A stretch of DNA of 64,000 bases from Alphaproteobacteria bacterium (lineage in GTDB: Bacteria; Pseudomonadota; Alphaproteobacteria; TMED109). The stretch lies in assembly GCA_965116745.1 (NCBI GenBank), contig OZ220701.1:436744-500743 (forward strand), written 5' to 3'. Position 1 is the first letter of the stretch; every line of letters begins with the position of its first letter. Shown here one piece after another: positions 45,218 to 59,784 of this stretch. The notes under the pieces were generated by a model. It did not search any database. It was not told where the DNA came from and saw only the letters and a program-made list of their open reading frames with translations. A program made the position numbers and the translations under genes.

Positions 45218-47284
45218 TCAGGCGGCCAGTTCGTGCCGCCGCTCGACGACGCGGAAATTCAGCTTCTCGGTGGGTTTCATCGACGGGAGCGGGTTGAACC
45301 GCAGCGCGTCGACGTACTTCGACGGCGACACCTCAAGGGTGACGTGACGAGCGATCATCAGCACGTTGACCGCAAGTTGCAGGTCCATCCACCGCGAACC
45401 CAGGCATTTGTGCGTGCCGAGTCCGTAGGGCGCGTAGCCCGGGTCGCGATGCTCGTCGCGTGGCGGCAGATAGCGGTCGATATCGAACGAGAACGGGTCG
45501 GGGAAGACTTCGTCCAGGTAATGCGTGGCGGTCTGGGCGATATGGACCCGCGAGCCCACCGGGATTTCGTGGCCCCCGATCACGAATGGGTTCATCACGT
45601 CCCGCATCGACATCGGCACGATCGGGTACATCCTGAGGCATTCCATCAGGAAGCGGTGCGTGACCCCCATCGAGGACATGCTGAAGTCGTCCCCGTCGGG
45701 ATCGCCGTGTTCGAACAGGGCATCGGCTTCCTCCCGGATTCTCTCGTGCAGCGCGGGCCGCGACGCCAGCACGTAAACCGCGAAGCTCAGCGCGTCGCCG
45801 AGATAGACGCTCGCGACCAACGACGCCGCCAGGGCGAAACGCAGGTTCGATTCCGGCACGAGCTGCGGATCGCTGGCGTGCAAGCTCAGCCAGTCATCTG
45901 CAAGGTCGCGCGAGCACCCGGCACGCTGGGCCGGCGTATGGACGCTCCGGATGCGTTCGATCAACGTGTCCACGGCCTTCGCCCGGCGCTTCATTCCCGG
46001 GGTATTGAGCATGAACTTGGGCAAGGCATGCATGATGTGAACGATGAGCGCCCGTTCCTTGAACTCGATCAGATCGTCAAGGATGTCCTGGGAGTCCACG
46101 CTGAGGAAGAGCGACGAGAGCTGCGCGTTGACCATTCGCCGGCACCTGCGTACGGGAAAAGTCTCGCCCACCGTCCAGTTCGCCATGAATTCGCGGGCGA
46201 GCCGGTACACCTGGTCCAGTTGACTCGACAGCCGGGCCCGTGAAAACGCCGGTCCCATGGCCTTGCGCAGCCGGAAATGATCGCCGCCGTCCAGCGAAGG
46301 CAATACGCCATGCGCGCCGTAGACTTTCTCGAAATCCGCGAAATAGCCCCAAGCCGTCAGGTGCATTCGCCCGTGCCGGTCCACCCACTCGTTGGTCTCC
46401 CGCCCGCCCAGGACGATCATGGGTTTGACGAACGGTGCACGGATCTCGAACACCGGGCCGTACTCTTTCGTCAGTTCGCCGAAGAGCGCGGGGACGTTGC
46501 CGCTGCGGACGTGGGGGCTGAGCAGCAACCGGCGTAGGGCGACGACGGGTCTTTTCTTGGTGAGCGTGGACCGCCGCAGCATCAGGCTGACGATGTTGTG
46601 TTCGACCGCGGCGGCGATCGAGCGGCCGATCAGGTCCATCCGGCAGATGAAATCAATGCGCTCCTGGGTCTCTTCGTCGATCTGGAACATGAAGCGAAGG
46701 ACGTCGCACGTGTTGACCAGGCAGATGATGATGATTTCCCGGGGTTCGGGAATCGCATCGGTGAAGAGCGCCTTGACGACCCGCGTCTTGATGAACTGCC
46801 CAACCGTGCCCGTTTGGGAGACGCCGAACAGGTCCTCGCGCCAGCGGGTCTCCGCCAGCGTCCAGAATTCGCCGTCGTGGTGTTCCAGGATCTCCGCTTC
46901 GACCAGGCGGTCCAGGGTCTGATCGATCATCGTGTCCGCGTTCAGGGCGAACTTCTCGATCCAGTACTGGGCGTTCCGGCGCTCCGGTTCCTCGGCGATT
47001 TCCTGCAGGATGGGATCGAGGACCGAATCGCCGGTTTCCGTTCGGTCCAGCAGGAACAGCGAGTCCAGGTCGGTGTCGATCCGCGAGAGCAGCGAGAGTT
47101 CCGCCAGCGCCGCGCCCACTACCGCACAATTGAGGGCCCAGCCGGGAACCTGGTGGAAATAGCCGGTCTGCTCGTTGAGGAGCATCAAGACGAGCTCCTC
47201 CGGCAGGGTCAGTGTTCGGATCGTCACGCCGCTATCGGGCATTGGCCCCGGCCCCACTTCCTCCTCTCGCTGTATCGACGCCAA
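45218..47284 (-). CDS. GOLPH3/GPP34-domain - cytochrome P450 fusion protein
   Basis: The N-terminal ~210 aa parallels human GOLPH3. LTLPEELVLMLLNEQTGY matches LTLMEEVLLLGLKDREGY; TGDSVLDPILQEIAEEPERRNAQYWIEKFA matches [30 protein letters not shown]. The C-terminal ~450 aa is a P450, with ExxR in ECLRMYP and heme loop YAPYGLGTHKCLGSRW. Confidence 0.85.
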   Translation of the reverse strand: MASIQREEEVGPGPMPDSGVTIRTLTLPEELVLMLLNEQTGYFHQVPGWALNCAVVGAALAELSLLSRIDTDLDSLFLLDRTETGDSVLDPILQEIAEEPERRNAQYWIEKFALNADTMIDQTLDRLVEAEILEHHDGEFWTLAETRWREDLFGVSQTGTVGQFIKTRVVKALFTDAIPEPREIIIICLVNTCDVLRFMFQIDEETQERIDFICRMDLIGRSIAAAVEHNIVSLMLRRSTLTKKRPVVALRRLLLSPHVRSGNVPALFGELTKEYGPVFEIRAPFVKPMIVLGGRETNEWVDRHGRMHLTAWGYFADFEKVYGAHGVLPSLDGGDHFRLRKAMGPAFSRARLSSQLDQVYRLAREFMANWTVGETFPVRRCRRMVNAQLSSLFLSVDSQDILDDLIEFKERALIVHIMHALPKFMLNTPGMKRRAKAVDTLIERIRSVHTPAQRAGCSRDLADDWLSLHASDPQLVPESNLRFALAASLVASVYLGDALSFAVYVLASRPALHERIREEADALFEHGDPDGDDFSMSSMGVTHRFLMECLRMYPIVPMSMRDVMNPFVIGGHEIPVGSRVHIAQTATHYLDEVFPDPFSFDIDRYLPPRDEHRDPGYAPYGLGTHKCLGSRWMDLQLAVNVLMIARHVTLEVSPSKYVDALRFNPLPSMKPTEKLNFRVVERRHELAA

Positions 47285-47421
47285 GGTTACCCCGATTTCC
47301 GCGCCTCGTCACGCCATTTCGCGTTCAGCTGGTTCGTCCACTTCCGTCGCAACTGCGCCGTTCCTAGTATGGCTATGCCCGTACCGACGACTGCGCGGCC
47401 CTCGCCGACCTTCATCAACAA

Positions 47422-48459
47422 GTGGAGCGCGCCATGTCGATGAAGCTGCCCAGAGACCTTCGGGACGCCTACCGGGGCTGGGACCCGGCGGCCGGCGTGG
47501 CGCGATTCAGCGGCTGGCTCGACCGAAGCAGACGGGCCGACCGGGATGGCTACGACCATACCGCGACAGTGAACGACTACTACGATTTGTGCAGCGAATT
47601 CATGCAGTTCGGATGGAACGAATCCCTGCACTTCGCTCCGTTGACGCGCGGGGAGACGCTGGAGGAAGCCATTGTCCGGCATCAACGCAGGATGATCGGA
47701 TCGCTGGAGCTGCGAGAGGGGATGAAGGTCGTGGACGTCGGCTGCGGTGTAGGCGGCCCCATGCGGCGGGTCGCCCGCGAGTCAAACGCCACGGTCGTCG
47801 GCATCAACAACAACCAACGGCAGTTGGAAATGGCGAGGCGGAGGAACGTCGAGGCGGGCCTCGATCACAGGGCGGAGTATGTCAAGTGCAACTTCATGGA
47901 CATGCACGCCATTGCAGCCCACTCGTTTGACGCGGGTTACGCGATCGAGTCGACGTGTCACGCGCCGGACAAGGCGCGCGCGTTCGCGGAGATCTTTCGC
48001 GTGCTCAAGCCGGGCGCGCCGTTCTGGGGCCAGGAAATGTGCATGACGGAAAGCTTCGACCCGGACAACGCCCGTCACCGCGCGATCAAGGATGAACTCA
48101 TGCGGGGAGTCGCCCTCCCGAATATCGCCACGTTCCGGGAAGTGAACGACGCGCTCGAGGCCGCAGGCTTCCACATTGTCGAGGCGGAGGACAGGGACAT
48201 CGGGGATAGCGGGGGCACGCCCTGGTATCGGCCCATGGAAGGACAGGGCGGGATATTGCGCAATGCGTTTCGCAGGACGCCATGGGGCCGCGCGGCGATG
48301 ATTGCCGGCCTTCGGCTGGCTGAGGCGTGCCGTGCCTTCCCGAAGGGTTCGACCGCCGTCGTCAGATTGATGGATCGAACAGCCGACGCGTTTGTTGCCG
48401 GCGGCAGGACAGGGATATTCACGCCGCTCTACTGTTTCCTCGCCCGCAAGCCCGGGTGA
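47422..48459 (+). CDS. sterol 24-C-methyltransferase (ERG6/SMT-type class I SAM methyltransferase)
   Basis: It is collinear with yeast ERG6 along its whole length: VNDYYDLCSEFMQFGWNESLHFAP, VVDVGCGVGGPMRRVA, VGINNNQRQL, YAIESTCHAPDKARAFAEIFRVLKPGAPF, PWYRPMEG, and the sterol-MT C-terminal block AFVAGGRTGIFTPLYCFLARKPG. Confidence 0.85.
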   Translation: MERAMSMKLPRDLRDAYRGWDPAAGVARFSGWLDRSRRADRDGYDHTATVNDYYDLCSEFMQFGWNESLHFAPLTRGETLEEAIVRHQRRMIGSLELREGMKVVDVGCGVGGPMRRVARESNATVVGINNNQRQLEMARRRNVEAGLDHRAEYVKCNFMDMHAIAAHSFDAGYAIESTCHAPDKARAFAEIFRVLKPGAPFWGQEMCMTESFDPDNARHRAIKDELMRGVALPNIATFREVNDALEAAGFHIVEAEDRDIGDSGGTPWYRPMEGQGGILRNAFRRTPWGRAAMIAGLRLAEACRAFPKGSTAVVRLMDRTADAFVAGGRTGIFTPLYCFLARKPG

Positions 48460-48828
48460 TCCGGCGGAACTGTCCAGGGCTTCTATCGACTACTTGACAG
48501 GTTGGAGATGTTCCGGGACGCAGGTCTCGAGCCCTTTGTTGAGTGTTGCGCGATTGCCCTCGCCAAGGCCGGGCGCCCCGGCATCTTCACCCTGATGCAG
48601 TTCATCCGCGCGCACAAGGCGGAACAGCGCGGGCCTCACGAATAGGCCAGGCCGGACGGCGCAGGATCGATCGCGAGTGGGGAGCCCGCGAAGGAGGGGT
48701 CGTGCCTGCGATTAGTGCGCGGAGTTCAGCGGAAGGCCGTCCCGGTGCAGTTCTTCCAGCGTCCCTCCCGGGCGTTGGCCACTCGACGGCGAAGCCGACC
48801 GGCGCAGATGCCGTTCTTCGACCGGGTG

Positions 48829-49785
48829 CTATCGCACCCGCTGGAGCGCCGTCCGGGTGAAGTCGCGAGCGTCAAGGTCGGTTCCAAACGCGTAGTCCGA
48901 CCAGTCCAGTATGGTGCTCTTGCCCGTGAGATGGTTGGTCATCGTGATCCTGCTGCTCCGCCAGAAACGATCCAGATATTGTGCGTAGTCTTCCATGACC
49001 ATCGTCTTGACATGCGCTTCCCGACGGTCGAAGAACTGGATCTGCATGGAGCGCAGTTCTTCCTTGTCCATCCATACCAGTTGACGGGAGTACCCGGAAT
49101 CCTCATTCAGCGGGATCCGCTCCAGAACGATGCATTCGAGCTCGCCGCAAGGCTCGTCCCGCAGGTACCGATGCATGAATTTCTCGACTTCCACGGTGCC
49201 GAGGTCCTCGTACGAGAACTCGCTGCCCATGAATGAGCCGGATTGATTCGCGGAGCTGATGCGCTTGACCCGTTTCAGGGCGGGGAGATAGAGCCACTGT
49301 TCGTCTGGCTCACCCTTGTGGACGTGAACGAGAAATGCGGTTCCCTTGACGTCGCGCGGGCGGTCGAACACGAACACGCTGCGGTCGCCGTCGCCCGCGA
49401 CCTCCATCACCTTCAGGCGGATTTCGCGATTGCTCTCCTGTCCCCGCTTGGTGCGCAGGGTCATGATCAGGTTAGACGTGAAGTTGCCGAAACCCTTTTG
49501 ACGTTCACGGGCCTCGGTCGCGATCCGGAGCCCCGCTTCTTCGGCGGTTTCAGCCTGCCCGACCGTAGGCACGGCCGCCCAGGCGAAGATGGCAAGTAGG
49601 ATCCCGAATGACGCCAGGACCGGGCGAGGAAGAGAAACGCGAATGACCGTTGCCTCCTGTCGATCACCGTAACCGCAACAGGAAACGTAGGAACTCGACG
49701 GAGAGGCCCGAGCAGTGAGCGGATCACATCGATTCCCGCACCTGTTGAAGCATGGTAGCACGATTCCTGCCATGCACCTGACCAT
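48829..49785 (-). CDS. LolA-like outer-membrane lipoprotein-sorting-type periplasmic protein
   Basis: DGDRSVFVFDRPRDVKGTAFLVHVHKGEPDEQWLYLPALKRVKRISSANQSGSFMGSEFSYEDL is the hallmark block of the LolA_like family that usually pairs with COG1033 RND genes. The start is uncertain; the signal-like segment begins near 49650. Confidence 0.75.
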   Translation of the reverse strand: MVRCMAGIVLPCFNRCGNRCDPLTARASPSSSYVSCCGYGDRQEATVIRVSLPRPVLASFGILLAIFAWAAVPTVGQAETAEEAGLRIATEARERQKGFGNFTSNLIMTLRTKRGQESNREIRLKVMEVAGDGDRSVFVFDRPRDVKGTAFLVHVHKGEPDEQWLYLPALKRVKRISSANQSGSFMGSEFSYEDLGTVEVEKFMHRYLRDEPCGELECIVLERIPLNEDSGYSRQLVWMDKEELRSMQIQFFDRREAHVKTMVMEDYAQYLDRFWRSSRITMTNHLTGKSTILDWSDYAFGTDLDARDFTRTALQRVR

Positions 49786-49827
49786 CTGCCACGGGACGGT
49801 CTTGTCCGCGGAGAGCAGCTTCCGTGC

Positions 49828-52155
49828 CTATCCGACCGACCGGCTCAGTCGCTCCCTGATCTGCGCGGTCGTTTCCTTCGTCGTGTCAAGCGCCATCAGC
49901 AACGGCGGAAGGAACAGGAAATCCGCCAGCAGGGCGATGATGACCGTGATCCCGACGAGCAGGCCGAGCGCCTGGTTGGTCACCATTCCCGATGCTCCGA
50001 ACACCATGAAGCCCAGCGCGAACACAACCGTCGTCGCGGTCAGCGCCTTGCCGACCGCGCCAAAGGCGGACTGAACGGACTCCGACGGCAACAGCCCGCG
50101 TTTCCTGGCGCCGACATACTTGGTCATGAAGTGGATCGTGTCGTCCACGATGATGCCGAACGCGATGGCGGTGACGACTGACGCCGCGACGCCGACCTCT
50201 CCTACCACGTATCCCCAAAGACCCATCGCCATGGCGGCCGGCAGGAAATTGGGGACTAGGCTGATCAGGCCGAGGCGCACGCTTCTGAAGACGAAGAGCA
50301 GGAGCAGGGACACGATGGCCATTGCCGCGATCGTGCCCCGCAGCATGCCCTCGATGTTCCGTTGAATTGAATGGGCGCCGACCACGGAAACGCCCGTGGC
50401 CTGGGTTTGCAGGTCGGGCGCGTTTTCCCGGAACCAGGCTTGCGTGCGATCGTCGAGGTCAACCTTCTCCCGGGTCGTGAGGCTCTTGAGCACGACCGTC
50501 ACGCGCGTCGAAGACCGTTCCACGTCGATGAGGTTGTTCAGATCGCGGCCGACCGGCAGAGAGAACTCGTAGAGCAGCAGGTACTGCGCAGCAAGGTCGG
50601 AGTCGTCCGGAAGCAGGTAGAAGCCGGGATCGTCGCCATGCAGGTTCTTGTTCAGGCGCTTCATGATGTCGGAGATGGCGAAGACGTGGGCCACCTCCGG
50701 TTGCGCCCGACTCCACTCCGCAAACGCGTCCACCTGCCGGAGATATTCGACATCCGTGATGCCGCCCTCCCGCCCGGAGTTGAGCGAGTACTCGTATGTT
50801 TCTACGCCGGTGAAGTTCTCGCTCACAAAGTCCGTGGATCGCCGGAACTCGTAGCTCTCGTCGAGCAGCTCAAGCCAGTTCTCGTGCAGCTCGATCCGCG
50901 AGATCCCGGCGATGAGCACGACCATCACGGCGGCGACCGACCAAAGCAGGGTCGTGCGGTAGGAAATGACGAACCGCGCCAGGCGATCGAAGATGTCTGC
51001 TTTTCCCGCCGGCGCAGGCCCGCCACGCATCGGCACAACGGTCAGGAAAGCGGGCAGCAGCGTGACCGAAAAGACGAAGGCCGCCATAGCGCCGAACGCC
51101 ACCATGTTGCCCATCACCCGAAACGGCGGCATGTCCGCGAAATTGAGGCTGAGAAAGCCGATTGCGGTTGTCACCGATGTCAGGAGAACCGGCCACACGT
51201 TGACCTGCAGGGAATGAATCGCTGCCTGCGGACGGTCCATGCCTTGGCGCAGGCCCGCCCGCATCCCCTCGATAATGTGCACGGAGTGCGCGACGGTGAC
51301 TGCCATCAAGACGAATAGCGCCGCGCCGCTCTCGCCGAACAACTTCAGCCCGACCCAACCGGTGAAACCCAGCGCGGACAGCATGACCGCGATCAGCATC
51401 ACGAGGATCGCCACCATTCCCCATAGCGAGCGCAACAGAACGATGGCGACGAGCAGCATGGTCCCGAGCGCGGCCGGCGCGAGGACGCCCATGTCATCGT
51501 CAATCGCCTGCTTCATGGCGCGGTTGAGGATGAGTTCGCCGGTCAGATGGTAGTCGATGGTCGGATACCGAGCTCTCTGTTCGGCGGCGGTACCGTGGAG
51601 GAAGTCGGTAACCTCGAATCGTCCCAGCTGTCGGTCCTCGGGAAGCGCGACGCTGACGACCAATCCGGCGATGCGACCATCCCTGGAAATGAAGCGCCCT
51701 GCGACTTCTTCGGTACTGAGCGCAATTTCGCGAATGCGTTCGATATCGCTGTCGCTCAGGGAACTGGCGTCGTCGATCAGGGGGGCGACGATCAGTTCGT
51801 CCTCGAGGCCCTCGCTGTGTGAATAGTTTGTGATCGAATCAACGCGGGTGACGTAGGGCGTTCGCCATAGCTGGTCGGTCAGCTCTTCAATGGCGACGAG
51901 CGCTTCCGGCGAGAAAACCGTACCGCCTTGCGGGGCCACGACCACCAGCGCGGCGTCGGAGAGCGAGTAGGTGGCTTCCAGCTCGTCGAGTGCGACGATG
52001 TGCGGGTCGTCTTGGCTGAAATGATTCCGAACGTCGACGTCAACGACAATGATGTACTGGGCGCCCGCGGCCAGGGCTAGCATTGCAACTAGTGAGAGTG
52101 CGATAGACAGCCATCGGCGCTCAACCGGTAGCGCGATGAAGGAATCCAAATTCAT
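49828..52155 (-). CDS. RND-superfamily lipid exporter (COG1033, MMPL/HpnN-like)
   Basis: 775 aa with two 6-TM bundles and two periplasmic loops. The N-terminal region ...HFSQDDPHIVALDELEATYS... is typical of predicted RND exporters. A LolA-like gene follows immediately on the same strand. Confidence 0.9.
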   Translation of the reverse strand: MNLDSFIALPVERRWLSIALSLVAMLALAAGAQYIIVVDVDVRNHFSQDDPHIVALDELEATYSLSDAALVVVAPQGGTVFSPEALVAIEELTDQLWRTPYVTRVDSITNYSHSEGLEDELIVAPLIDDASSLSDSDIERIREIALSTEEVAGRFISRDGRIAGLVVSVALPEDRQLGRFEVTDFLHGTAAEQRARYPTIDYHLTGELILNRAMKQAIDDDMGVLAPAALGTMLLVAIVLLRSLWGMVAILVMLIAVMLSALGFTGWVGLKLFGESGAALFVLMAVTVAHSVHIIEGMRAGLRQGMDRPQAAIHSLQVNVWPVLLTSVTTAIGFLSLNFADMPPFRVMGNMVAFGAMAAFVFSVTLLPAFLTVVPMRGGPAPAGKADIFDRLARFVISYRTTLLWSVAAVMVVLIAGISRIELHENWLELLDESYEFRRSTDFVSENFTGVETYEYSLNSGREGGITDVEYLRQVDAFAEWSRAQPEVAHVFAISDIMKRLNKNLHGDDPGFYLLPDDSDLAAQYLLLYEFSLPVGRDLNNLIDVERSSTRVTVVLKSLTTREKVDLDDRTQAWFRENAPDLQTQATGVSVVGAHSIQRNIEGMLRGTIAAMAIVSLLLLFVFRSVRLGLISLVPNFLPAAMAMGLWGYVVGEVGVAASVVTAIAFGIIVDDTIHFMTKYVGARKRGLLPSESVQSAFGAVGKALTATTVVFALGFMVFGASGMVTNQALGLLVGITVIIALLADFLFLPPLLMALDTTKETTAQIRERLSRSVG

Positions 52156-52794
52156 GTCAACGTGCCGAATCGGTATCAGGCTTCATGTATAGCACTTCCA
52201 GTCCACCCGGCCACGGGAGGAGCCGGTACGCCTGCCCATCCAGGCTGCTGTTCGTATCGCGGTTGCGGCAACCACCACCGGTATCGTCAAGTTAACAGTA
52301 TCGCGTTTGCCCCATTGCCTTCAATCAATACTGAAACGGTTGATAGGTACGGATGGTTGCCGGTGCGCCAGTGCCCGCTGCATCGCGCTGACGCAACCGT
52401 GTCCGGCAGAGAACGCTCCACGCGATCACGCCTGGCGCGCGCGGTTCAACTGCGGCAACTTCACGTCGAGACTTCGGAAAGTCCCCTCATCAGGCAGAGG
52501 GGCAGGCTATTGAATGTCGTCGACTTCAGATGGCTTGCAGGTCTCTTTTGTACGGTCATTCGTCTTGTTGCCGTACCACGACAGTGCTATTTGTCGGGTG
52601 ATGCGATACAGCAAGAACTGTGACGTCGGCTCGGCTACTGGCCTGCCGTCGACGTGCGACTTCCTCACCATCATTTGACATGGCGAGGACGAAACCTGGA
52701 TGCTTCAGGACCACGCACCGTCGCTCCCTTCGGTCTTGCGCAGTTCGCTGAGATAAAGGCGTCGCCATACCTGGGAACGAGAAATTGGCGAAAC

Positions 52795-53841
52795 GTGAAG
52801 AGCAGTTGCAGCACGGGTGACGTGACGGGCGCTCTGTTTCCGTTTCCCGAGGGCTGGTACTTCGTCATCAGCCGACGCTCTTTGGTAAAGAGCAAACTGA
52901 TTCAACGGCAGTGGCTGGGCCAGGACATCATCGCCTGGTGTGACAGTGAAGGCACTGTCTGCGTGGCCGAGTCGGTGTGCCCGCATATGGGTTCATCTCT
53001 GGGCCCGGCCGCAGGCGGGCAAGTGCGCGACGACTGTCTCGTCTGCCCCTTTCACGGGTTCACGTACGATATTTCCGGCAGTTGCGTGGCGACTCCCTTT
53101 GCTCCGCCGCCGAAATCCGTGAAGCTTCAGGTGCTCGATGTACGGGAAATTCATGGCCTGATCTTCGCCTGGTGGAGCGCAGCCGGACGACCGCCGCAAT
53201 GGACCTTGCCGGACGTGCCGTCCGCGGGAGACGACTGGTGCGCCCCGGAAGTCCGGAGCGTCCGATTTCGCGGCCATGTCCAGGAGTTGGCAGAGAACTC
53301 CGTGGATCTGGCCCACCTGCAGTACGTACATGGTTACCGAGACGTAAATCCGGTCGGCTCGACCACGGTGGATGGCGCCCATCTGCTTGCCCGGTTCGAG
53401 TTCCGCCGGCGCCGGCGTATCGCCGGCATTGTCGAGTCCGTCTACCAGGTTTCTGCTGCCGCCCACGTCCATGGGCTCGGTTACTCTTTCGTCGATATCC
53501 AGGAGCACTCGATCGGCATGGACCTGCGGCTCTGGGTCCTTGCCACCCCGGTCGACGGCACGTTGGTGGAGTTGGTCCTGGTCAGCCAGATCCGGAACAT
53601 GCGCAACCCCAAACGACCGATCGTGGGCCTGGGGTTCCTGCCCGCGAAGCTGCGCACCAGCGTCATGAACAAGTTCGTGGTATCCGCGCAAATGCGGGAT
53701 GTCCGCCAGGATGTCGTCATCTGGCAACGACGGCGGCATCGTCCGCATCCGCGATTGAGTCGTTCTGACGGCGACATCGGCAGATATCGTCGCTATTGCA
53801 AACAGTTCTATCCGCGCGTCGACGAAGGTGATGACAGGTAG
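52795..53841 (+). CDS. Rieske [2Fe-2S] non-heme iron oxygenase (sterol-desaturase/SdmA/KshA-like class)
   Basis: Rieske motif CPHMGSSL...(17)...CPFHGF, preceded by FPEGWYFV. The C-terminal catalytic region includes NSVDLAHLQYVHG. Start GTG 52795 is proposed; the 395-aa ORF start at 52654 adds a non-homologous leader. Confidence 0.8.
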   Translation: MKSSCSTGDVTGALFPFPEGWYFVISRRSLVKSKLIQRQWLGQDIIAWCDSEGTVCVAESVCPHMGSSLGPAAGGQVRDDCLVCPFHGFTYDISGSCVATPFAPPPKSVKLQVLDVREIHGLIFAWWSAAGRPPQWTLPDVPSAGDDWCAPEVRSVRFRGHVQELAENSVDLAHLQYVHGYRDVNPVGSTTVDGAHLLARFEFRRRRRIAGIVESVYQVSAAAHVHGLGYSFVDIQEHSIGMDLRLWVLATPVDGTLVELVLVSQIRNMRNPKRPIVGLGFLPAKLRTSVMNKFVVSAQMRDVRQDVVIWQRRRHRPHPRLSRSDGDIGRYRRYCKQFYPRVDEGDDR

Positions 53842-53975
53842 CCGCTGTGCGGGCCTGGAAGCCCGCTTTTGCGGCCCGGTCGCGACCGGTGACCCGGGGC
53901 AACCGAACCGCTAGCGGAAGCTGACGATCCCCAACCGGCAGTGCAGCGCCAGCGGGCCATGACCCTTCCCGTGCG

Positions 53976-55334
53976 CTACGCCTTCCTGAACCGTGACCCG
54001 TGCAGGATGCTCCCATAGTGGTTGAACCACCGCCTGGCCTCGGGGTCGTCAAAGGGATAGTCGGCGCCAAGCTGCCTCGCCGCGGCGAGGCCGGTGATGA
54101 GGCATGTCTCCTGGCTGTTGATCAGCGTGTGAGCGCCGCAGTGCCACGTCCTTCGCTTGCCCTGAATGAAGCGGAACAGGCCCACGAGCATCGTGACTTG
54201 ACGCAGGTCATGAACGATATGCTGGAACCGGCGCTTCGAGATGATTTTCAGCTCGTCGATGGGACTGGTCGCGTTGTAGGTCACCAGGCAGGGCTTGTCC
54301 GAACGCTTGGCCCAGGGCTGCTGGTTGTGGATGATGTGCGTGATCTCGTAATTGTCAGGTTTGTCGCCGTACTGCCGGATGTAGTTGGTCCGAGTGGCCA
54401 GGCACTTCATGTCGTTGTCGGGCAGGACAGAGGAGTCCCAGTGAACGACGGCTTGACGGTGGATATCGTTGTCGTATCGGATTGACGAAAGGATGAAGCG
54501 TTCGAGCCGGGAAGGCTGGTCCAGGATTTTCAGGGTCTGGTCTGCCGGGCATGCAAACACAACCTCGTCGAACGTTTCCCGGGCCCCGGACGCATCCTCA
54601 ATCACGACGCCGGATGCCTGTCGGTACACCTTCGAGACCGGCCGGTTGAGGTAGATTTTGTCCCGGAAGCCAGCCGACAGGTTCTCGTAGATTCGTCGAG
54701 TCCCCTGATCCCACGTCCACATGGGGGTGCCCGTCTCGATATTGAAGAATTCGAGATACCTCGAGAAGAGCGCCGCTGGCAGATCGAACACGTTCGAGGC
54801 CAGTACGAAATTGATGAACATCGGCTTCAGGATCTTGTACCGGAAGGCCTCGGAAAATCCCCCCAGATTCAAGACCGTCCGCATGCTGACGTAATTGAAC
54901 GGGTTGAGGGCGTTCAGGTACTTGGACCGGGCGCGGCTGAGCCAGCCGATCCAGTGCAAACGTCTCAGGAGGCGCTGAAACTTCCTGATTTCGGATTGAA
55001 GATCGTCCCTGATCTCGGACTCGAAATCATGGGCGTAGGCTTGGCCACCGTACTCGACGCTGTAGGTGAACCTGGTATCAATGAGCTTGATATCGAACGC
55101 TTCCATCAGCAACAGGACGTGGTGATACACTGATGGAATAAGGGCCGTGACCGATATGTCGAAGGGAATTGAACTGCCGTCATTCTGGGGCATGTCGACG
55201 GTGACCGCGTTCCCGCCGAGCTGCTCCTGGGCCTCGAACAGGCGGAAATCAAAACGGTCCGGGTGATGATGCAGCGCCCAGGCGGCGCCCAGTCCCGAGA
55301 CGCCTCCACCCACAACAGCAATTCGTTGCGGCAT
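53976..55334 (-). CDS. FAD-dependent oxidoreductase (amine-oxidase fold, COG2907-like)
   Basis: Dinucleotide fold MPQRIAVVGGGVSGLGAAWAL...FEAQEQLGGNA and the C-terminal ...HCGAHTLINSQETCLITGLAAARQLG. GC is visibly lower than in the flanks. Confidence 0.8.
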   Translation of the reverse strand: MPQRIAVVGGGVSGLGAAWALHHHPDRFDFRLFEAQEQLGGNAVTVDMPQNDGSSIPFDISVTALIPSVYHHVLLLMEAFDIKLIDTRFTYSVEYGGQAYAHDFESEIRDDLQSEIRKFQRLLRRLHWIGWLSRARSKYLNALNPFNYVSMRTVLNLGGFSEAFRYKILKPMFINFVLASNVFDLPAALFSRYLEFFNIETGTPMWTWDQGTRRIYENLSAGFRDKIYLNRPVSKVYRQASGVVIEDASGARETFDEVVFACPADQTLKILDQPSRLERFILSSIRYDNDIHRQAVVHWDSSVLPDNDMKCLATRTNYIRQYGDKPDNYEITHIIHNQQPWAKRSDKPCLVTYNATSPIDELKIISKRRFQHIVHDLRQVTMLVGLFRFIQGKRRTWHCGAHTLINSQETCLITGLAAARQLGADYPFDDPEARRWFNHYGSILHGSRFRKA

Positions 55335-55757
55335 TGCGGTTTTCCTCGCAAATCTCGGAACTTGGAAACTTACCACCGTGCCCGATCGCCCACTAGGCAG
55401 CCATGCTGCTTGGCCGCGCCATGGCAGGAAGAAACGAACCGCCGGTCAGGCAGCGACAGCGATGTCGGACCCGAGGCCGCCGTCTGGCCAAATCACTGCC
55501 GTGCCGCGGCGTGCCCTTCGTAGTGCGTTTGCGATTAACGTGCGTCGAGTGCCTGATCTCGGGGGACGTCTGATCGATGGGATCGAGATCTGGTGAAGGC
55601 GGTGCAGCACCCGCGGTTGTGTCCCTGCATTGCGGGCGGCGTGGCGCCCGGTTCTGTTCATGGCGGTAGCTCCCGTGGCCAGCCAAACGGGGGGTCCAAT
55701 CAGAATGTTGTTCGCGGCCTGCCGAAGCGTCATCATCCTTTCCGAGTGAGAACCGGC

Positions 55758-56537
55758 ATGCATTTTCTCGTGTTTTCGAAGCGGTTCGGGCTGGCCGTTC
55801 TCGCGCTGCTTTCGTGCGTTTCGGCCCAGGCCGCCGATTGGAGCAACACCGAATTTCATCTCCAGGTCGGCCGTCTGGATGCCCCCTCTTTCGCTGGCGG
55901 CGGCAGAGCCCTACACGTGATCCATACGCTGCAGCACGCAAGCGGATGGCAATATGGCGACAACTTCTTCTTCGTTGACGTCGTGGATTCGCGGCAGCCC
56001 GGCGCCCCCGACATCGACTTCTACAGCGAAGCCTACGCGAACTTGAGCCTTGGCAAGATTACCGGCGGTCGCGTCGGCACCGGCCTGGTTTCGGATATCG
56101 GGCTGATCGGCGGCTTCAACTGGGCCGTGGACGCGAAGGTCCGAAAATATGCAGCCGGCGTACGGCTGGCGCTCGGCCTCGAGGGTTTTGCGTTCGCGAA
56201 CCTCGACCTGATGGCCCTGATCGACGACAGCGAGGGGTTCGTGTCCGGCGGGGCGCCCGCGGAGGACGACACTATCCTCATCGACTTCAACTTCGCACGG
56301 CCGTTCAGGATCGGCACAGCGGACTTCAGCCTCGAAGGCCATATCGAATATGTCGGCGGGCGGACCAACGAACTCGGCGGCACGGTGGGATCGTGGATCT
56401 TGGCGCAGCCCCAGCTGCAGTGGCACTTGACTGATCGGCTCGCGCTCGGGATCGAGTACCAGTTGTGGATCAACAAGTTGGGCGACCGGGACACCGACGA
56501 GAACGCCGTGCAGGCTTTGATCGTGTGGGAATTCTAG
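55758..56537 (+). CDS. Tsx/OmpK-like outer-membrane channel
   Basis: Signal peptide MHFLVFSKRFGLAVLALLSCVSAQA. ADWSNTEFHLQVG... and the terminal ...NAVQALIVWEF match the Tsx/OmpK family pattern. Confidence 0.7.
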   Translation: MHFLVFSKRFGLAVLALLSCVSAQAADWSNTEFHLQVGRLDAPSFAGGGRALHVIHTLQHASGWQYGDNFFFVDVVDSRQPGAPDIDFYSEAYANLSLGKITGGRVGTGLVSDIGLIGGFNWAVDAKVRKYAAGVRLALGLEGFAFANLDLMALIDDSEGFVSGGAPAEDDTILIDFNFARPFRIGTADFSLEGHIEYVGGRTNELGGTVGSWILAQPQLQWHLTDRLALGIEYQLWINKLGDRDTDENAVQALIVWEF

Positions 56538-57134: not shown

Positions 57135-58130
57135 ATGCGGGTGATCACGGGAGCGAGCGGCCATATCGGCGGTGTGCTCGCCCGAGTGCTGGCCGACCGG
57201 GGTGATCCCCGTCAGGTCCGCGCGATCTACCGCGATCGGAAAGGAACGGCAGCCGATCTCGCCATTGAGTGGGTCGGTGGCGACATCCTCGACCAGGAAT
57301 CGCTGGTTGCCGCGTTCTCGGGAGCGGAAACCGTCTACCACCTGGCCGCCTTGGTGTCGATTGACCCCGGCCGGGCCAAGGATGTCCACACGACGAACGT
57401 GTCGGGCACGCGCAACGTCGTTGAGGCAGCCCTGCGCTGCGGCGTGCGGCGGCTGGTGCACGTTTCCTCGATTCACGCCTTCAACCAGCACCCGCTCGAC
57501 GAAGTGCTCGACGAGCGCCGTGGTCCCGCCGACGGTCCGTGGCACGCCGCCTACGACCTGTCGAAAGCGGCAGGCGAACGGGAGATTCGGCGCGGCATTG
57601 ATCGCGGCCTCGATGCCGTGATCCTCAACCCGACCAGCGTCATCGGCCCCTTCGACGGCGTGCCCTCGTACATGGGACACGTGTTCCTCGACCTGTACCG
57701 GAGACGCATTCCCGCGCAGGTTGCGGGCGGCTTCGACTGGGTGGACGTGCGCGACGTGGTCGACGCCACGGTGGCCGCCGAGACGAAGGCGAGGTGCGGC
57801 GAGAACTACCTCCTGTCAGGCGGCTGGGATACCGTGCGCAACCTGGCGATCCTGTCCGAGCAGGCGACCGGGGTGCCGGTGTCGCGTTTCGTGGTCCCCT
57901 TGTTCGTGGCCCGGCTCTGGGCGCCCTTTCAGGTCATGTTGGACCGTAGTCAGGGGCGCCGGCCGCTCTATACGCCGTCGGCGGTACGCGTGATGAGCAA
58001 CGGCAACCGCCGGATATCCAACGCCAAGGCGCGGGCGGAACTCGGGTTCGAGCCGCGTCCCTTGGCAGATTCCGTACGGGATGCCTACCGTTGGTTCGAC
58101 GAGCAGGGCATGCTCGGCGAAGCTGGTTGA
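57135..58130 (+). CDS. extended short-chain dehydrogenase/reductase (3-beta-HSD/HpnA/dihydroflavonol reductase-like)
   Basis: MRVITGASGHIGGVLARVL (Rossmann fold), YDLSKAAGE (YxxxK), 331 aa. Confidence 0.85.
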   Translation: MRVITGASGHIGGVLARVLADRGDPRQVRAIYRDRKGTAADLAIEWVGGDILDQESLVAAFSGAETVYHLAALVSIDPGRAKDVHTTNVSGTRNVVEAALRCGVRRLVHVSSIHAFNQHPLDEVLDERRGPADGPWHAAYDLSKAAGEREIRRGIDRGLDAVILNPTSVIGPFDGVPSYMGHVFLDLYRRRIPAQVAGGFDWVDVRDVVDATVAAETKARCGENYLLSGGWDTVRNLAILSEQATGVPVSRFVVPLFVARLWAPFQVMLDRSQGRRPLYTPSAVRVMSNGNRRISNAKARAELGFEPRPLADSVRDAYRWFDEQGMLGEAG

Positions 58131-58131
58131 G

Positions 58132-58893
58132 ATGGCCGAGGAACAACTGCACGGCGTGCTGGTATGGGCGGTCATCGCCGCGGCCGGCCTGACGTTCCTG
58201 TACCTGCTCCGCCTGACCGCGCCCTACGGCCGCCACTACGCCGGCACGGGCTGGGGGCCCCACATCTCCAGCCGGCTCGGCTGGGTCATCATGGAACTGC
58301 CGGCGGTCGTCATCTTTCTCGCGGTCTATCTCGCCGGAAAGTCGGCGTCCCATCTCGTGCCGCTGTTCTTCCTGGCCATGTGGCAGGTCCACTATCTGAA
58401 CCGGACGTTCGTGTTTCCGTTCCGGATCCGGGCAAGCGGACGGAAGACGCCGCTGCTGATCGTGGCGTCAGGCTTGTTCTTCAATGCGATCAACGCCTAC
58501 ATCAATGCCCGGTTCATTTCGGAATTCGGCGAGTACGCGGTCGAATGGCTCGCCGACCCGCGTTTCCTGATCGGCGTCGGAGTTTTCCTGGCGGGGATGG
58601 CGCTCAACCTGCACGCCGACCACGTCCTCATTCGCCTGCGTGGACCGGGCGAGACCGGCTACGTGATCCCGCAGGGAGGCGGGTATCGCTTCGTGTCGTG
58701 TCCCAACTACCTGGGTGAACTCCTCGAATGGGCCGGCTGGGCACTCGCCACGTGGTCGACGTGCGGTCTCGCCTTTTTCCTCTTTACCGCCGCCAATCTC
58801 GTGCCCAGGGCGCGCAGCAATCACCAATGGTACCGGGAGACCTTCAGCGATTACCCGCCTCGCCGGAAGGCGCTGATACCGGGCGTCTTCTGA
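58132..58893 (+). CDS. 3-oxo-5-alpha-steroid 4-dehydrogenase (steroid 5-alpha-reductase, SRD5A/DET2 family)
   Basis: The C-terminus GGGYRFVSCPNYLGELLEWAGWALATWSTCGLAFFLFTAANLVPRARSNHQWYRETFSDYPPRRKALIPGVF is collinear with human SRD5A1 (GGLFEYVTAANYFGEIMEWCGYALASWS...RAKEHHEWYLRKFEEYPKFRKIIIPFLF). The start ATG is 2 nt after the SDR stop. Confidence 0.85.
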   Translation: MAEEQLHGVLVWAVIAAAGLTFLYLLRLTAPYGRHYAGTGWGPHISSRLGWVIMELPAVVIFLAVYLAGKSASHLVPLFFLAMWQVHYLNRTFVFPFRIRASGRKTPLLIVASGLFFNAINAYINARFISEFGEYAVEWLADPRFLIGVGVFLAGMALNLHADHVLIRLRGPGETGYVIPQGGGYRFVSCPNYLGELLEWAGWALATWSTCGLAFFLFTAANLVPRARSNHQWYRETFSDYPPRRKALIPGVF

Positions 58894-58941: not shown

Positions 58942-59784
58942 TCAGCGGTTCGTCACCTGCAGCCACGTCCAGAGCAGGCCCATCATGACGGGCTGGTGCA
59001 GCAGGTAGTAGACGAGGCTGTTGCGGCCGAGGAAGCGGACGAACCGCCCGACGTGGCCTTCCATCCGGTAGACCGCCAGCCGGCGCAGCGCCCCCGCCCC
59101 GTGCGCCCATCTGGCGGCGCCGATACCAAAGAGCACCGCTGCCAGCCAGGGAAACACCGGGAAGTAGTCGCCCGAATTCGGGCGGGCGACCGACAGCCCG
59201 GTCCACTGCCAGATCCGCGCGTCCAGCAACTCGGTCTGCACCGTTTCGTTGATGGCGAGAATGGCCACCGCCGCGGCCACCGCCAGCCACCACGGGCCCC
59301 GCACGAACGCCAGGCCGGCGATGCCGGCAAACGCGATCAGGTGCAGGATGCCGAAAAAGATCAGCGACTGTGGCGTGGCGATCCAGGTGGCAGCGGTGAT
59401 GGCCAGCGCCCCCAGGACGATCAGCGCCAGCCGCCGGGCCCAGCGCGTCCAGTGGAAGGCGTGCGCGTGCGCGAGATAGAGGCTCGCGCCCGTCGCGAAC
59501 AGGAAGCTGATGGCCACGGCCTTGGCCAGGGCCGCCCAGTGGAGCTGCGTCGTGTAGCCGGGCTCCTGCAGCCCAAAGAACATCAGATCGTAGGCAAAAT
59601 GGAATACGGTCATCCCGATGAGCGCGACCCCCCGCAGCAGGTCCAGCAGCGGGATCCGGGGGACGCTCTCGGTTCCGGCTCGTCGATGGTCCGCGCCGGA
59701 ACGTCCGGCCGGGGCCTGGGCGCCCTGCCGCCGGGATCTCCGCGGTTTCGCTCTCGCTGCCCGTGGTCCGCGCCTTCGAGCCAT
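58942..59784 (-). CDS. DUF1624/HGSNAT-like membrane acyltransferase-family protein
   Basis: RIPLLDLLRGVALIGMTVFHFAYDL... and multiple TM segments are typical of DUF1624. Confidence 0.7.
   Translation of the reverse strand: MARRRGPRAARAKPRRSRRQGAQAPAGRSGADHRRAGTESVPRIPLLDLLRGVALIGMTVFHFAYDLMFFGLQEPGYTTQLHWAALAKAVAISFLFATGASLYLAHAHAFHWTRWARRLALIVLGALAITAATWIATPQSLIFFGILHLIAFAGIAGLAFVRGPWWLAVAAAVAILAINETVQTELLDARIWQWTGLSVARPNSGDYFPVFPWLAAVLFGIGAARWAHGAGALRRLAVYRMEGHVGRFVRFLGRNSLVYYLLHQPVMMGLLWTWLQVTNR

Follow-up and report, generated by a model that had tools for sequence, protein, structure and literature searches.

Why does a gene pair encoding an RND-type transporter and a LolA-like periplasmic protein lie among genes for sterol-type enzymes in a bacterial genome? 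The pair is situated in a stretch of 64,000 nucleotides (nt) from an alphaproteobacterium of the TMED109 lineage (contig OZ220701.1, positions 436,744 to 500,743 of the forward strand). This whole stretch was analysed and is referred to here as the window. An initial annotation had placed the two open reading frames (ORFs) on the same strand, flanked by a sterol methyltransferase (SMT) gene and a Rieske oxygenase gene, and this layout agrees with the ORF positions, the Pfam matches of the pair and the domain matches of its neighbours. The RND/LolA-like pair probably traffics sterol-type lipids between the inner and outer membranes (rough probability 0.55). We infer that the cargo is a sterol and that the two proteins hand it to each other.

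Relatives of the RND protein were collected by scanning one genome per species, which gave 577, and the best 80 were kept for locus and tree work. Nearly all of these best 80 are found in metagenome-assembled genomes (MAGs) with sponge or coral names or bin codes; sources include Poriferihabitaceae, Spongiihabitans, the SB06xx bins of Ircinia ramosa and the Plut bins (PMC11706023). In the RND tree the window protein falls in a 37-row clade with a stem of 0.44 and a support of 100 in the SH-like approximate likelihood ratio test (SH-aLRT). MAGs of sponge and coral symbionts from at least six phyla contribute to the clade. Its members show 64–94% identity and are found in Alphaproteobacteria, Gammaproteobacteria, Arenicellales, Poriferihabitaceae, Thermodesulfobacteriota/Dadabacteria and a Spirochaetia bin. 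RND proteins this similar, in one clade across such distant lineages, form a pattern that on the sequence evidence can only be explained by horizontal transfer.

At least one gene for an SMT, a GPP34-cytochrome P450 fusion (GPP34-P450), a Rieske oxygenase or an amine-oxidase-fold flavoprotein is found by tblastn within 10 kb of the RND gene in 31 of 36 clade loci, as against 10 of 44 other loci. At least two of these genes are present within that distance in 20 of the 36. Five clade loci contain none, but in at least three of the five (L011, L005, L074) the flanks are short or cut off. When the ORFs of the clade loci are clustered without supervision, exactly six families prove to be widely shared, any other family being present in eight loci or fewer. 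These are the RND proteins and, counted among 37 clade loci, GPP34-P450 (19), Rieske (19), LolA-like (17), SMT (14) and flavoprotein (13). Gene order and orientation differ between loci, and the SMT gene is directly downstream of the RND gene in L003, L004, L010 and L015. The association with sterol-type enzymes claimed in the initial annotation is therefore borne out by co-location that recurs across phyla in varied gene orders. Among transport genes, just those for the RND protein, the carrier and often a beta-barrel accompany the enzymes from locus to locus, and on this ground we conclude that the pair probably traffics sterol-type lipids.

A module of this kind, i.e. an RND gene of the 37-row clade together with two or more of the SMT, GPP34-P450, KshA-type Rieske and amine-oxidase flavoprotein genes, is present in the window. 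All four enzyme genes lie within 7 kb of the pair. The features are, by window position:

45218–47284, minus strand: GPP34 (GOLPH3-like)-cytochrome P450 fusion (PF05719 and PF00067)
47422–48459, plus strand: SMT-family methyltransferase (Methyltransf_11 and Sterol_MT_C), convergent with the LolA-like gene
48829–49785, minus strand: LolA_like (PF17131) periplasmic protein, longest ORF 318 amino acids (aa), probable coding part 48829–49644/49647
49552–49644, minus strand: predicted Sec signal peptide of the LolA-like protein (residues 48–78 of the long-ORF translation)
49653–49657, minus strand: conserved GGAGG ribosome-binding site (DNA alignment of six loci and window sequence)
49751–49764, minus strand: element ATCGTGCTACCATG, resembling an extended -10 (TGnTAnnAT), conserved about 100 nt upstream of the LolA-like start
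49828–52155, minus strand: RND-superfamily inner-membrane transporter (MMPL/HAE3-like), 775 aa (PF03176)
52654–53841, plus strand: Rieske oxygenase with KshA-type C-terminal domain (PF00355 and PF19298), divergent from the RND gene
53976–55376, minus strand: amine-oxidase-fold flavoprotein (PF01593)
57135–58893, plus strand: short-chain dehydrogenase (SDR)/3-beta-hydroxysteroid dehydrogenase (3-beta-HSD)-like gene and steroid 5-alpha-reductase (SRD5A) family gene (PF01073/PF01370 and PF02544)

Beyond the flavoprotein gene the window also has an aldo-keto reductase gene, which like the SDR and SRD5A genes is not conserved with the module. The SDR/3-beta-HSD-like and 5-alpha-reductase genes show no counterparts in other loci except for one SRD5A gene in L143, and are local to this genome and outside the shared module. 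Just past the 5-alpha-reductase gene, at 58942–59784 on the minus strand, is a gene for an HGSNAT_cat (heparan-alpha-glucosaminide N-acetyltransferase-like) membrane acyltransferase, again with no counterpart in related loci. The closest relative, L001, retains the flanking M16 peptidase and nucleotidyltransferase genes. On that side, where its flank is a short 3.9 kb, it displays a different P450 (52% identity) and neither an SMT nor a flavoprotein gene.

The LolA-like proteins show a tree of similar form. An 18-row clade (support 100) contains only members situated near RND genes of the sterol-linked clade, and the remaining LolA-like clades track the remaining RND clades. The two trees broadly mirror each other and, as judged from the sequences, the RND and LolA-like genes have co-diversified. 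A reverse search from the P450 gave 76 loci. An RND or carrier gene is found within 10 kb in 30 of the 59 loci from double-membrane lineages and in 1 of the 17 from Chloroflexota/Actinobacteria (0 of 15 in Dehalococcoidia). The lone exception, L095, is a 9.8-kb contig binned as Chloroflexota, with an 83% match to the L024 barrel. It shows the same genes, identities and spacing as the Rhodospirillales contig L094, and because it duplicates that arrangement it is probably a binning error. That the enzymes occur without the transport genes where an outer membrane is believed to be absent agrees with a role of the pair in periplasmic crossing. The GPP34-P450 fusion itself is reported to be confined to sponge symbionts (PMC11706023). 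A larger island is found in Dadabacteria-type genomes (L112 and L020; OX638332.1, about 496–519 kb). It carries two RND genes (41% and 72% identical to that of the window), a sterol-clade LolA-like gene, a barrel gene, two SMT paralogues and P450, flavoprotein and Rieske genes.

In most related loci the carrier gene adjoins a gene for a barrel-type protein, about 430 aa long and with the C-terminus ...NLDYNF, that resembles DUF1302 proteins distantly. Some members match DUF1302 marginally (23.8–31.4 bits, cut-off 23.2) and others give no match. The generic layout in the relatives is RND, carrier, barrel, e.g. in L038–L041, L022, L024, L029 and L012. No DUF1302-like barrel lies beside the window's pair, and the adjacent three-gene arrangement is not seen there. 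The only barrel copy in the genome, at 2800228–2801478, is 56% identical to the L024 barrel and follows a LolA-like paralogue. A Tsx-like outer-membrane barrel at 55758–56537 of the window was considered as part of the system and rejected; it gives a weak OMP_b-brl hint (E 0.13) and has no counterpart in the 80 related loci.

Paralogues of the module genes are found at several other places in the genome. The LolA_like paralogue and the DUF1302-like barrel belong to a same-strand run (L157:5311–12597, genome 2799311–2806597) that continues with a polyprenyl synthase, two SQS_PSY genes of HpnC/HpnD-like type and an HpnE-like amine oxidase. The run looks like a squalene-synthesis set joined to envelope-transport genes, in a genome lacking cyclase and epoxidase. 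A third RND and a third LolA_like paralogue bracket a cluster of the type for ribosomally synthesised and post-translationally modified peptides (RiPPs) at L159:3210–19710 (genome 1197210–1213710). This cluster contains a C39-peptidase ABC exporter, a second ABC protein, a nitrile-hydratase-like leader protein, YcaO and a tryptophan-halogenase-family gene. At L158:4718–8399 (genome 2626718–2630399) an MpaB/Lcp-like oxygenase gene is directly upstream of a second RND paralogue (49% identical). Two more SMT paralogues, at 2553136–2554068 (45%) and 263309–264334 (39%), bring the SMT-family genes to three in a genome of 2.9 Mb that lacks sterol synthesis.

Several points weigh against a sterol role for the pair. 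The difference in enzyme linkage between clade and non-clade loci gives a Fisher p of 1e-8 that is uncorrected for relatedness and thus ignores shared ancestry. The LolA-like gene is absent within 10 kb in 16 of 36 clade loci, in particular the RND-centred Dadabacteria-type loci, and the carrier is replaced by another paralogue in L002, L068 and L006; it is an optional member of the module. RND and LolA-like pairs of 41–52% identity, in the same order and with no sterol genes, are found in Latescibacterota, Acidobacteriota, Arenicellales and others. The initial annotation had regarded pairs of this sort as a refutation of its proposal; they do exist, but the clade to which the window's own pair belongs is sterol-linked. 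The genome's RND/LolA-like paralogues lie beside a RiPP cluster and beside squalene-synthesis genes, and the pair may be a general hydrophobic-cargo unit. Characterised bacterial RND proteins of this branch are, to our knowledge, all exporters, e.g. HpnN and MmpL3/4/5, and export is proposed for BstA and ApeM; this sits poorly with a purely importing role. No experiment ties any PF17131 protein to sterols, and the LolA3 proteins of P. gingivalis and F. johnsoniae are without known cargo (PMC13103446, PMC11885536).

The pair could accordingly be viewed as an exporter of general hydrophobic compounds or envelope lipids, perhaps one protecting against sponge metabolites, that rides on the mobile island of the enzymes and shares no substrate with them. 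Trios that combine RND and LolA-like genes with a barrel gene are widely found in the absence of sterol genes. The paralogues near the YcaO RiPP cluster and the MpaB-like oxygenase suggest that the unit is reused for other hydrophobic cargo, and this keeps a generic exporter alive as an explanation. The G+C content, 0.60–0.73 across the window, is 0.60–0.63 over the module (46000–56000) and 0.66–0.69 in the flanks, as expected for acquired DNA, and co-riding on such an island fits this as well. However, one specific, well-supported RND clade and a matching LolA-like clade hold the association across phyla despite rearrangements, and the SMT gene directly follows the RND gene in the four loci named above. 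A general exporter is thus doubtful as an explanation of the window's pair.

The source of the cargo bears on what the pair can be doing. The window's genome is a single 2.93-Mb contig, 96.5% complete, in which no triterpene cyclase (no match to SQHop_cyclase_C, PF13243) and no squalene epoxidase are found. It does encode a farnesyl diphosphate (FPP) synthase, two SQS_PSY proteins and an HpnE-like oxidase, in the run with the LolA-like paralogue and barrel. About 10 of 50 related genomes carry a true cyclase (440–490 bits). Cyclase matches of about 180 bits in related genomes were rejected; these lie in frames of 1000–1400 aa that are not cyclases. No SQS_PSY gene is found in 8 of 39 module carriers, among which are Dadabacteria-type (Thermodesulfobacteriota) single-chromosome records of 1.6–1.9 Mb, an Arenicellales genome (G010) and a Spirochaetia-labelled MAG (G017). 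Carriers without SQS_PSY cannot make any triterpenoid and therefore the module substrate must come from outside, which in a sponge is most plausibly host sterol.

With neither cyclase nor epoxidase here, and cyclase absent from most carriers, the host is the most likely source of the sterols, and this calls for a step inward. Inspection reveals no signal peptide in any of the four tailoring enzymes (SMT, GPP34-P450, Rieske and flavoprotein), and they need S-adenosylmethionine or reducing partners; therefore they act at the cytoplasmic face, and an exogenous sterol must cross the outer membrane and the periplasm. The initial annotation proposed a route carrying sterols from the inner to the outer membrane; read as a route for sterols of the cell's own making, this is not supported, given the absence of cyclase and squalene epoxidase from this genome and of cyclase from most carriers.

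An endogenous cargo could also be an acyclic triterpenoid, i.e. squalene made by HpnC/D/E-like enzymes, modified by the SMT-like enzymes and oxidases and exported by the pair. SMT-family enzymes that methylate squalene exist in Botryococcus, and the window's genome has three SMT paralogues and no cyclase. Its FPP synthase, two SQS_PSY genes and HpnE-like oxidase adjoin a LolA-like paralogue and the only DUF1302-like barrel. On the other hand, the Dadabacteria-type genomes, G010 and G017 hold the module without any SQS_PSY gene, and in the window the module is accompanied by genes for KshA-type, 3-beta-HSD-like and steroid 5-alpha-reductase enzymes, which work on a steroid nucleus. Endogenous squalene is argued against as a general cargo, yet it is possible in this genome; as an explanation of the pair it is unlikely.

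The RND protein belongs to the MMPL family (Pfam PF03176, 127.5 bits, cut-off 20.5). Its hydropathy profile is RND-type with 12 transmembrane (TM) segments, i.e. TM1, a large loop, a TM2–6 block, TM7, a large loop and a TM8–12 block. The AlphaFold model (predicted local distance difference test, pLDDT, 83.9; predicted template modelling score, pTM, 0.77) shares its fold with RND proteins that move lipids and sterols, the nearest being MmpL4/5, MmpL3, NPC1L1/NPC1/NCR1 and HpnN, all about equally close, with template modelling (TM) scores of 0.69–0.78 and 12–16% identity. The best-scoring subfamily model is HAE3 (TIGR00921) at 160.7 bits, yet this is below the curated cut-off of 351.9. HpnN models score far below their cut-offs (NF052374, 53.5 vs 1100; TIGR03480, 112.9 vs 751.85), and the BstA model NF045600 gives 21.9 bits against a cut-off of 1400. 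By curated thresholds the protein is thus, at the level of sequence, neither HpnN nor BstA.

In TM10 the motif VDDTIHF (within residues 665–680) is invariant and contains the invariant acidic pair, which the RND protein has in this segment only. The TM4 motif reads VAHSVH in the sterol clade (residues 280–297), with no acidic residue, and VAD[SC]VH in some other clades. The sterol-sensing-domain Pfam match gives 20.8 bits, under the threshold of 22.3. A hit of this kind is expected for any RND protein of this branch, so it is given no weight.

These data also bear on export of self-made sterols from the inner to the outer membrane, in the manner of HpnN for hopanoids or, as proposed, of BstA/B/C for 4-methylsterols. 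The fold matches HpnN and MmpL-type exporters, characterised bacterial relatives known to us all export, and a few related genomes do carry a cyclase. A single-contig genome of 96.5% completeness with no cyclase and no squalene epoxidase, the carriers that lack cyclase (most) and also squalene synthase (8 of 39), and the low scores of the HpnN and BstA models together make self-made sterol a very improbable cargo.

The LolA-like protein belongs to the LolA_like family (PF17131, 200.1 bits, cut-off 30). The WLYLPALKRVKRISS...SFMGSEFSYEDL block, which the initial annotation took as the hallmark of the family, is present in the translation, and its residues are invariant across 57 homologues. Compared with 3bk5, a protein of solved structure, the LolA-like protein gives a phmmer E-value of 5.7e-77 and 50% identity. 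The predicted structure (pLDDT 88.8, first 27 residues disordered) is a LolA-superfamily half-barrel, in line with the LolA-like fold suggested earlier. It superposes on 3bk5 with a TM score of 0.98, on P. gingivalis LolA3 (9tp6) with 0.91, and also on the DUF1329 protein 4z48. Twelve carrier positions are clade-specific, e.g. H158 replacing Y and S144 replacing A.

The signal peptide read from the translation, IRVSLPRPVLASFGILLAIFAWAAVPTVGQA followed by ETAEE, is of a typical Sec type and has no lipobox cysteine. It begins at residue 48 of the long ORF, so that 47 residues precede it. In an alignment of DNA from six loci, the start in homologues is a GTG five nt past the conserved GGAGG, or in some an ATG one codon later. 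In the window and in L001 the GTG position reads GTC and is followed by ATT (49644–49642 in the window), and an in-frame upstream ATG (49773 in the window) is kept in both genomes. Translation may begin at the ATT at 49644 or at the upstream ATG, and the start codon is uncertain. The gap of 40 nt between the RND and LolA-like genes reported initially holds for the longest ORF; the signal peptide and the starts of homologues imply that the true gap is probably about 180 nt. The database gene call (P0009, 247 aa) begins inside the signal peptide and is probably wrong.

An element, ATCGTGCTACCATG, is found with two changes or fewer upstream of sterol-clade LolA-like genes in L001, L008/L092, L024, L082, L085 and L098. 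By a two-mismatch search it is conserved in at least seven loci from different genomes; an exact search of related loci with an 18-nt upstream element gave no match. It may be a promoter-like (extended -10) element. A promoter scan of 48600–52900 showed no promoter-like site. Terminator-like sites in this interval are no commoner than in shuffled sequence, and none lies between the RND and LolA-like genes. Rfam at a permissive threshold gave no match over 49500–52900.

That the LolA-like protein serves the Lol pathway as a lipoprotein chaperone, with the RND gene unrelated, is scarcely credible in spite of its database name (outer membrane lipoprotein-sorting protein) and its LolA-superfamily fold, given that solved canonical LolA proteins superpose with TM scores of 0.36–0.5 and 8–15% identity as against 0.9–0.98 for the 3bk5/LolA3 group, that LolA3 of P. 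gingivalis is only a very weak binder of LolB and is without the arginine that LolA conserves in its beta2-beta3 loop (PMC13103446), that deletion of lolA3 in F. johnsoniae gives no phenotype, and none related to lipoproteins (PMC11885536), and that the protein co-diversifies with the RND gene.

The preferred reading is thus trafficking of sterol-type lipids, in which the pair would handle movement across the envelope for a sterol-tailoring module that sponge-symbiont bacteria share by horizontal transfer. The RND protein would be seated in the inner membrane. The LolA-like protein, with its signal peptide, would be a soluble periplasmic carrier whose half-barrel shields a sterol-type lipid across the periplasm. 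The DUF1302-like beta-barrel, encoded elsewhere in this genome beside a LolA-like paralogue, would probably act at the outer-membrane end. The cargo would most likely be a host-derived sterol that reaches the inner membrane for modification and may then return outward. Outward delivery of a modified product and inward, NPC2/NPC1-like delivery are about equally likely. Precedents for lipid-moving RND systems are HpnN and BstABC (PMC10942540) and ApeL/M/N (PMC8253772).

A more far-reaching form of this reading may be put forward tentatively as a possibility. The module would be a mobile 'sterol service', in which the RND/LolA-like/barrel route imports host sterols, the enzymes remodel the side chain or nucleus, and the products return by the same route. 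Part of the unusual sterol inventory of demosponges would then be made by bacteria unable to synthesise sterols, and the RND protein would be the first in bacteria to work inward on sterol, like NPC1 with NPC2. If so, side-chain-alkylated sterols relevant to the debate on the 24-isopropylcholestane biomarker would be partly of bacterial making.

Full-text literature searches on LolA-like/RND sterol systems and on sterol RND proteins of sponge symbionts found no description of such a system. The paper on symbiont SMTs (PMC10070321) mentions no transporters or RND, and that on GPP34 (PMC11706023) mentions no sterols, RND or LolA. Acquisition, movement and alteration of host sterols by bacteria are poorly understood, and the only proposed bacterial sterol transport system, BstABC, is from a sterol producer. 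The transporter genes described here are another set, transferred widely and linked to sterol-type enzymes in bacteria that do not synthesise sterols, and offer concrete proteins for tests of sterol binding and direction. Sponge-symbiont SMTs have been taken to imply de novo bacterial synthesis of alkylated sterols (PMC10070321), an idea on which the lack of cyclase in most module carriers bears. The GPP34-P450 fusion has been regarded as a host-directed effector (PMC11706023), but the lipid enzymes and transporters that constantly accompany it argue rather for lipid tailoring. A cargo class is also suggested for the uncharacterised PF17131/LolA3 protein group.

Trafficking of lipids by an RND protein and a carrier in the periplasm is a known kind of system, to which the pair would belong. 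Among the closest known systems is BstA/BstB/BstC of M. capsulatus, in which genes for an RND protein of the MMPL family, a periplasmic carrier and a protein associated with the outer membrane lie beside those for sterol enzymes, with proposed movement of sterol across a double-membrane envelope (PMC10942540). The initial annotation was right that the periplasmic partner of BstA has a different fold: BstB belongs to Phosphonate-bd (PF12974), a periplasmic-binding-protein family, and does not show the LolA fold (PMC10942540). The adjacent partner in the window is LolA_like; no search was made for BstB homologues in the rest of the genome. M. capsulatus, unlike this organism, makes its own sterols, and sterol binding by the Bst proteins has been measured.

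HpnN is likewise a lipid-moving RND protein of the MMPL family that takes a polycyclic triterpenoid toward the outer membrane, and its fold superposes on the RND model with a TM score of about 0.69. The genome here differs in having no cyclase or hopanoid locus. HpnN is not known to have a LolA-like partner.

The aryl-polyene system (ApeL/ApeM/ApeN) and the flexirubin system (LolA2/LolB2) resemble the window in combining a LolA-like carrier with an RND protein in a lipid biosynthetic cluster, with proposed placement of the product in the outer membrane (PMC8253772, PMC11885536). The third part in those systems is a LolB-like lipoprotein (DUF3261), while here a DUF1302-like beta-barrel recurs. 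The cargo is also of another class, and in the present case the cell probably does not produce it. Neither the Ape nor the flexirubin system is biochemically proven.

In NPC2/NPC1 and NPC1L1 transport of eukaryotes a soluble sterol carrier hands its cargo to a membrane protein of RND fold, which passes it toward the membrane, and NPC1L1, NPC1 and NCR1 superpose on the window's RND model with TM scores of 0.75–0.78. However, the N-terminal sterol-binding domain is lacking here, the carrier fold is unrelated and the identity is 12–14%. The analogy extends to inward transport only. For the carrier, the relation to 3bk5, P. gingivalis LolA3 (9tp6) and the DUF1329 protein 4z48 (PF17131) is one of direct family and fold membership. 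These three have no assigned cargo or partner, whereas the LolA-like protein of the window falls in a sub-clade linked with a sterol-type module.

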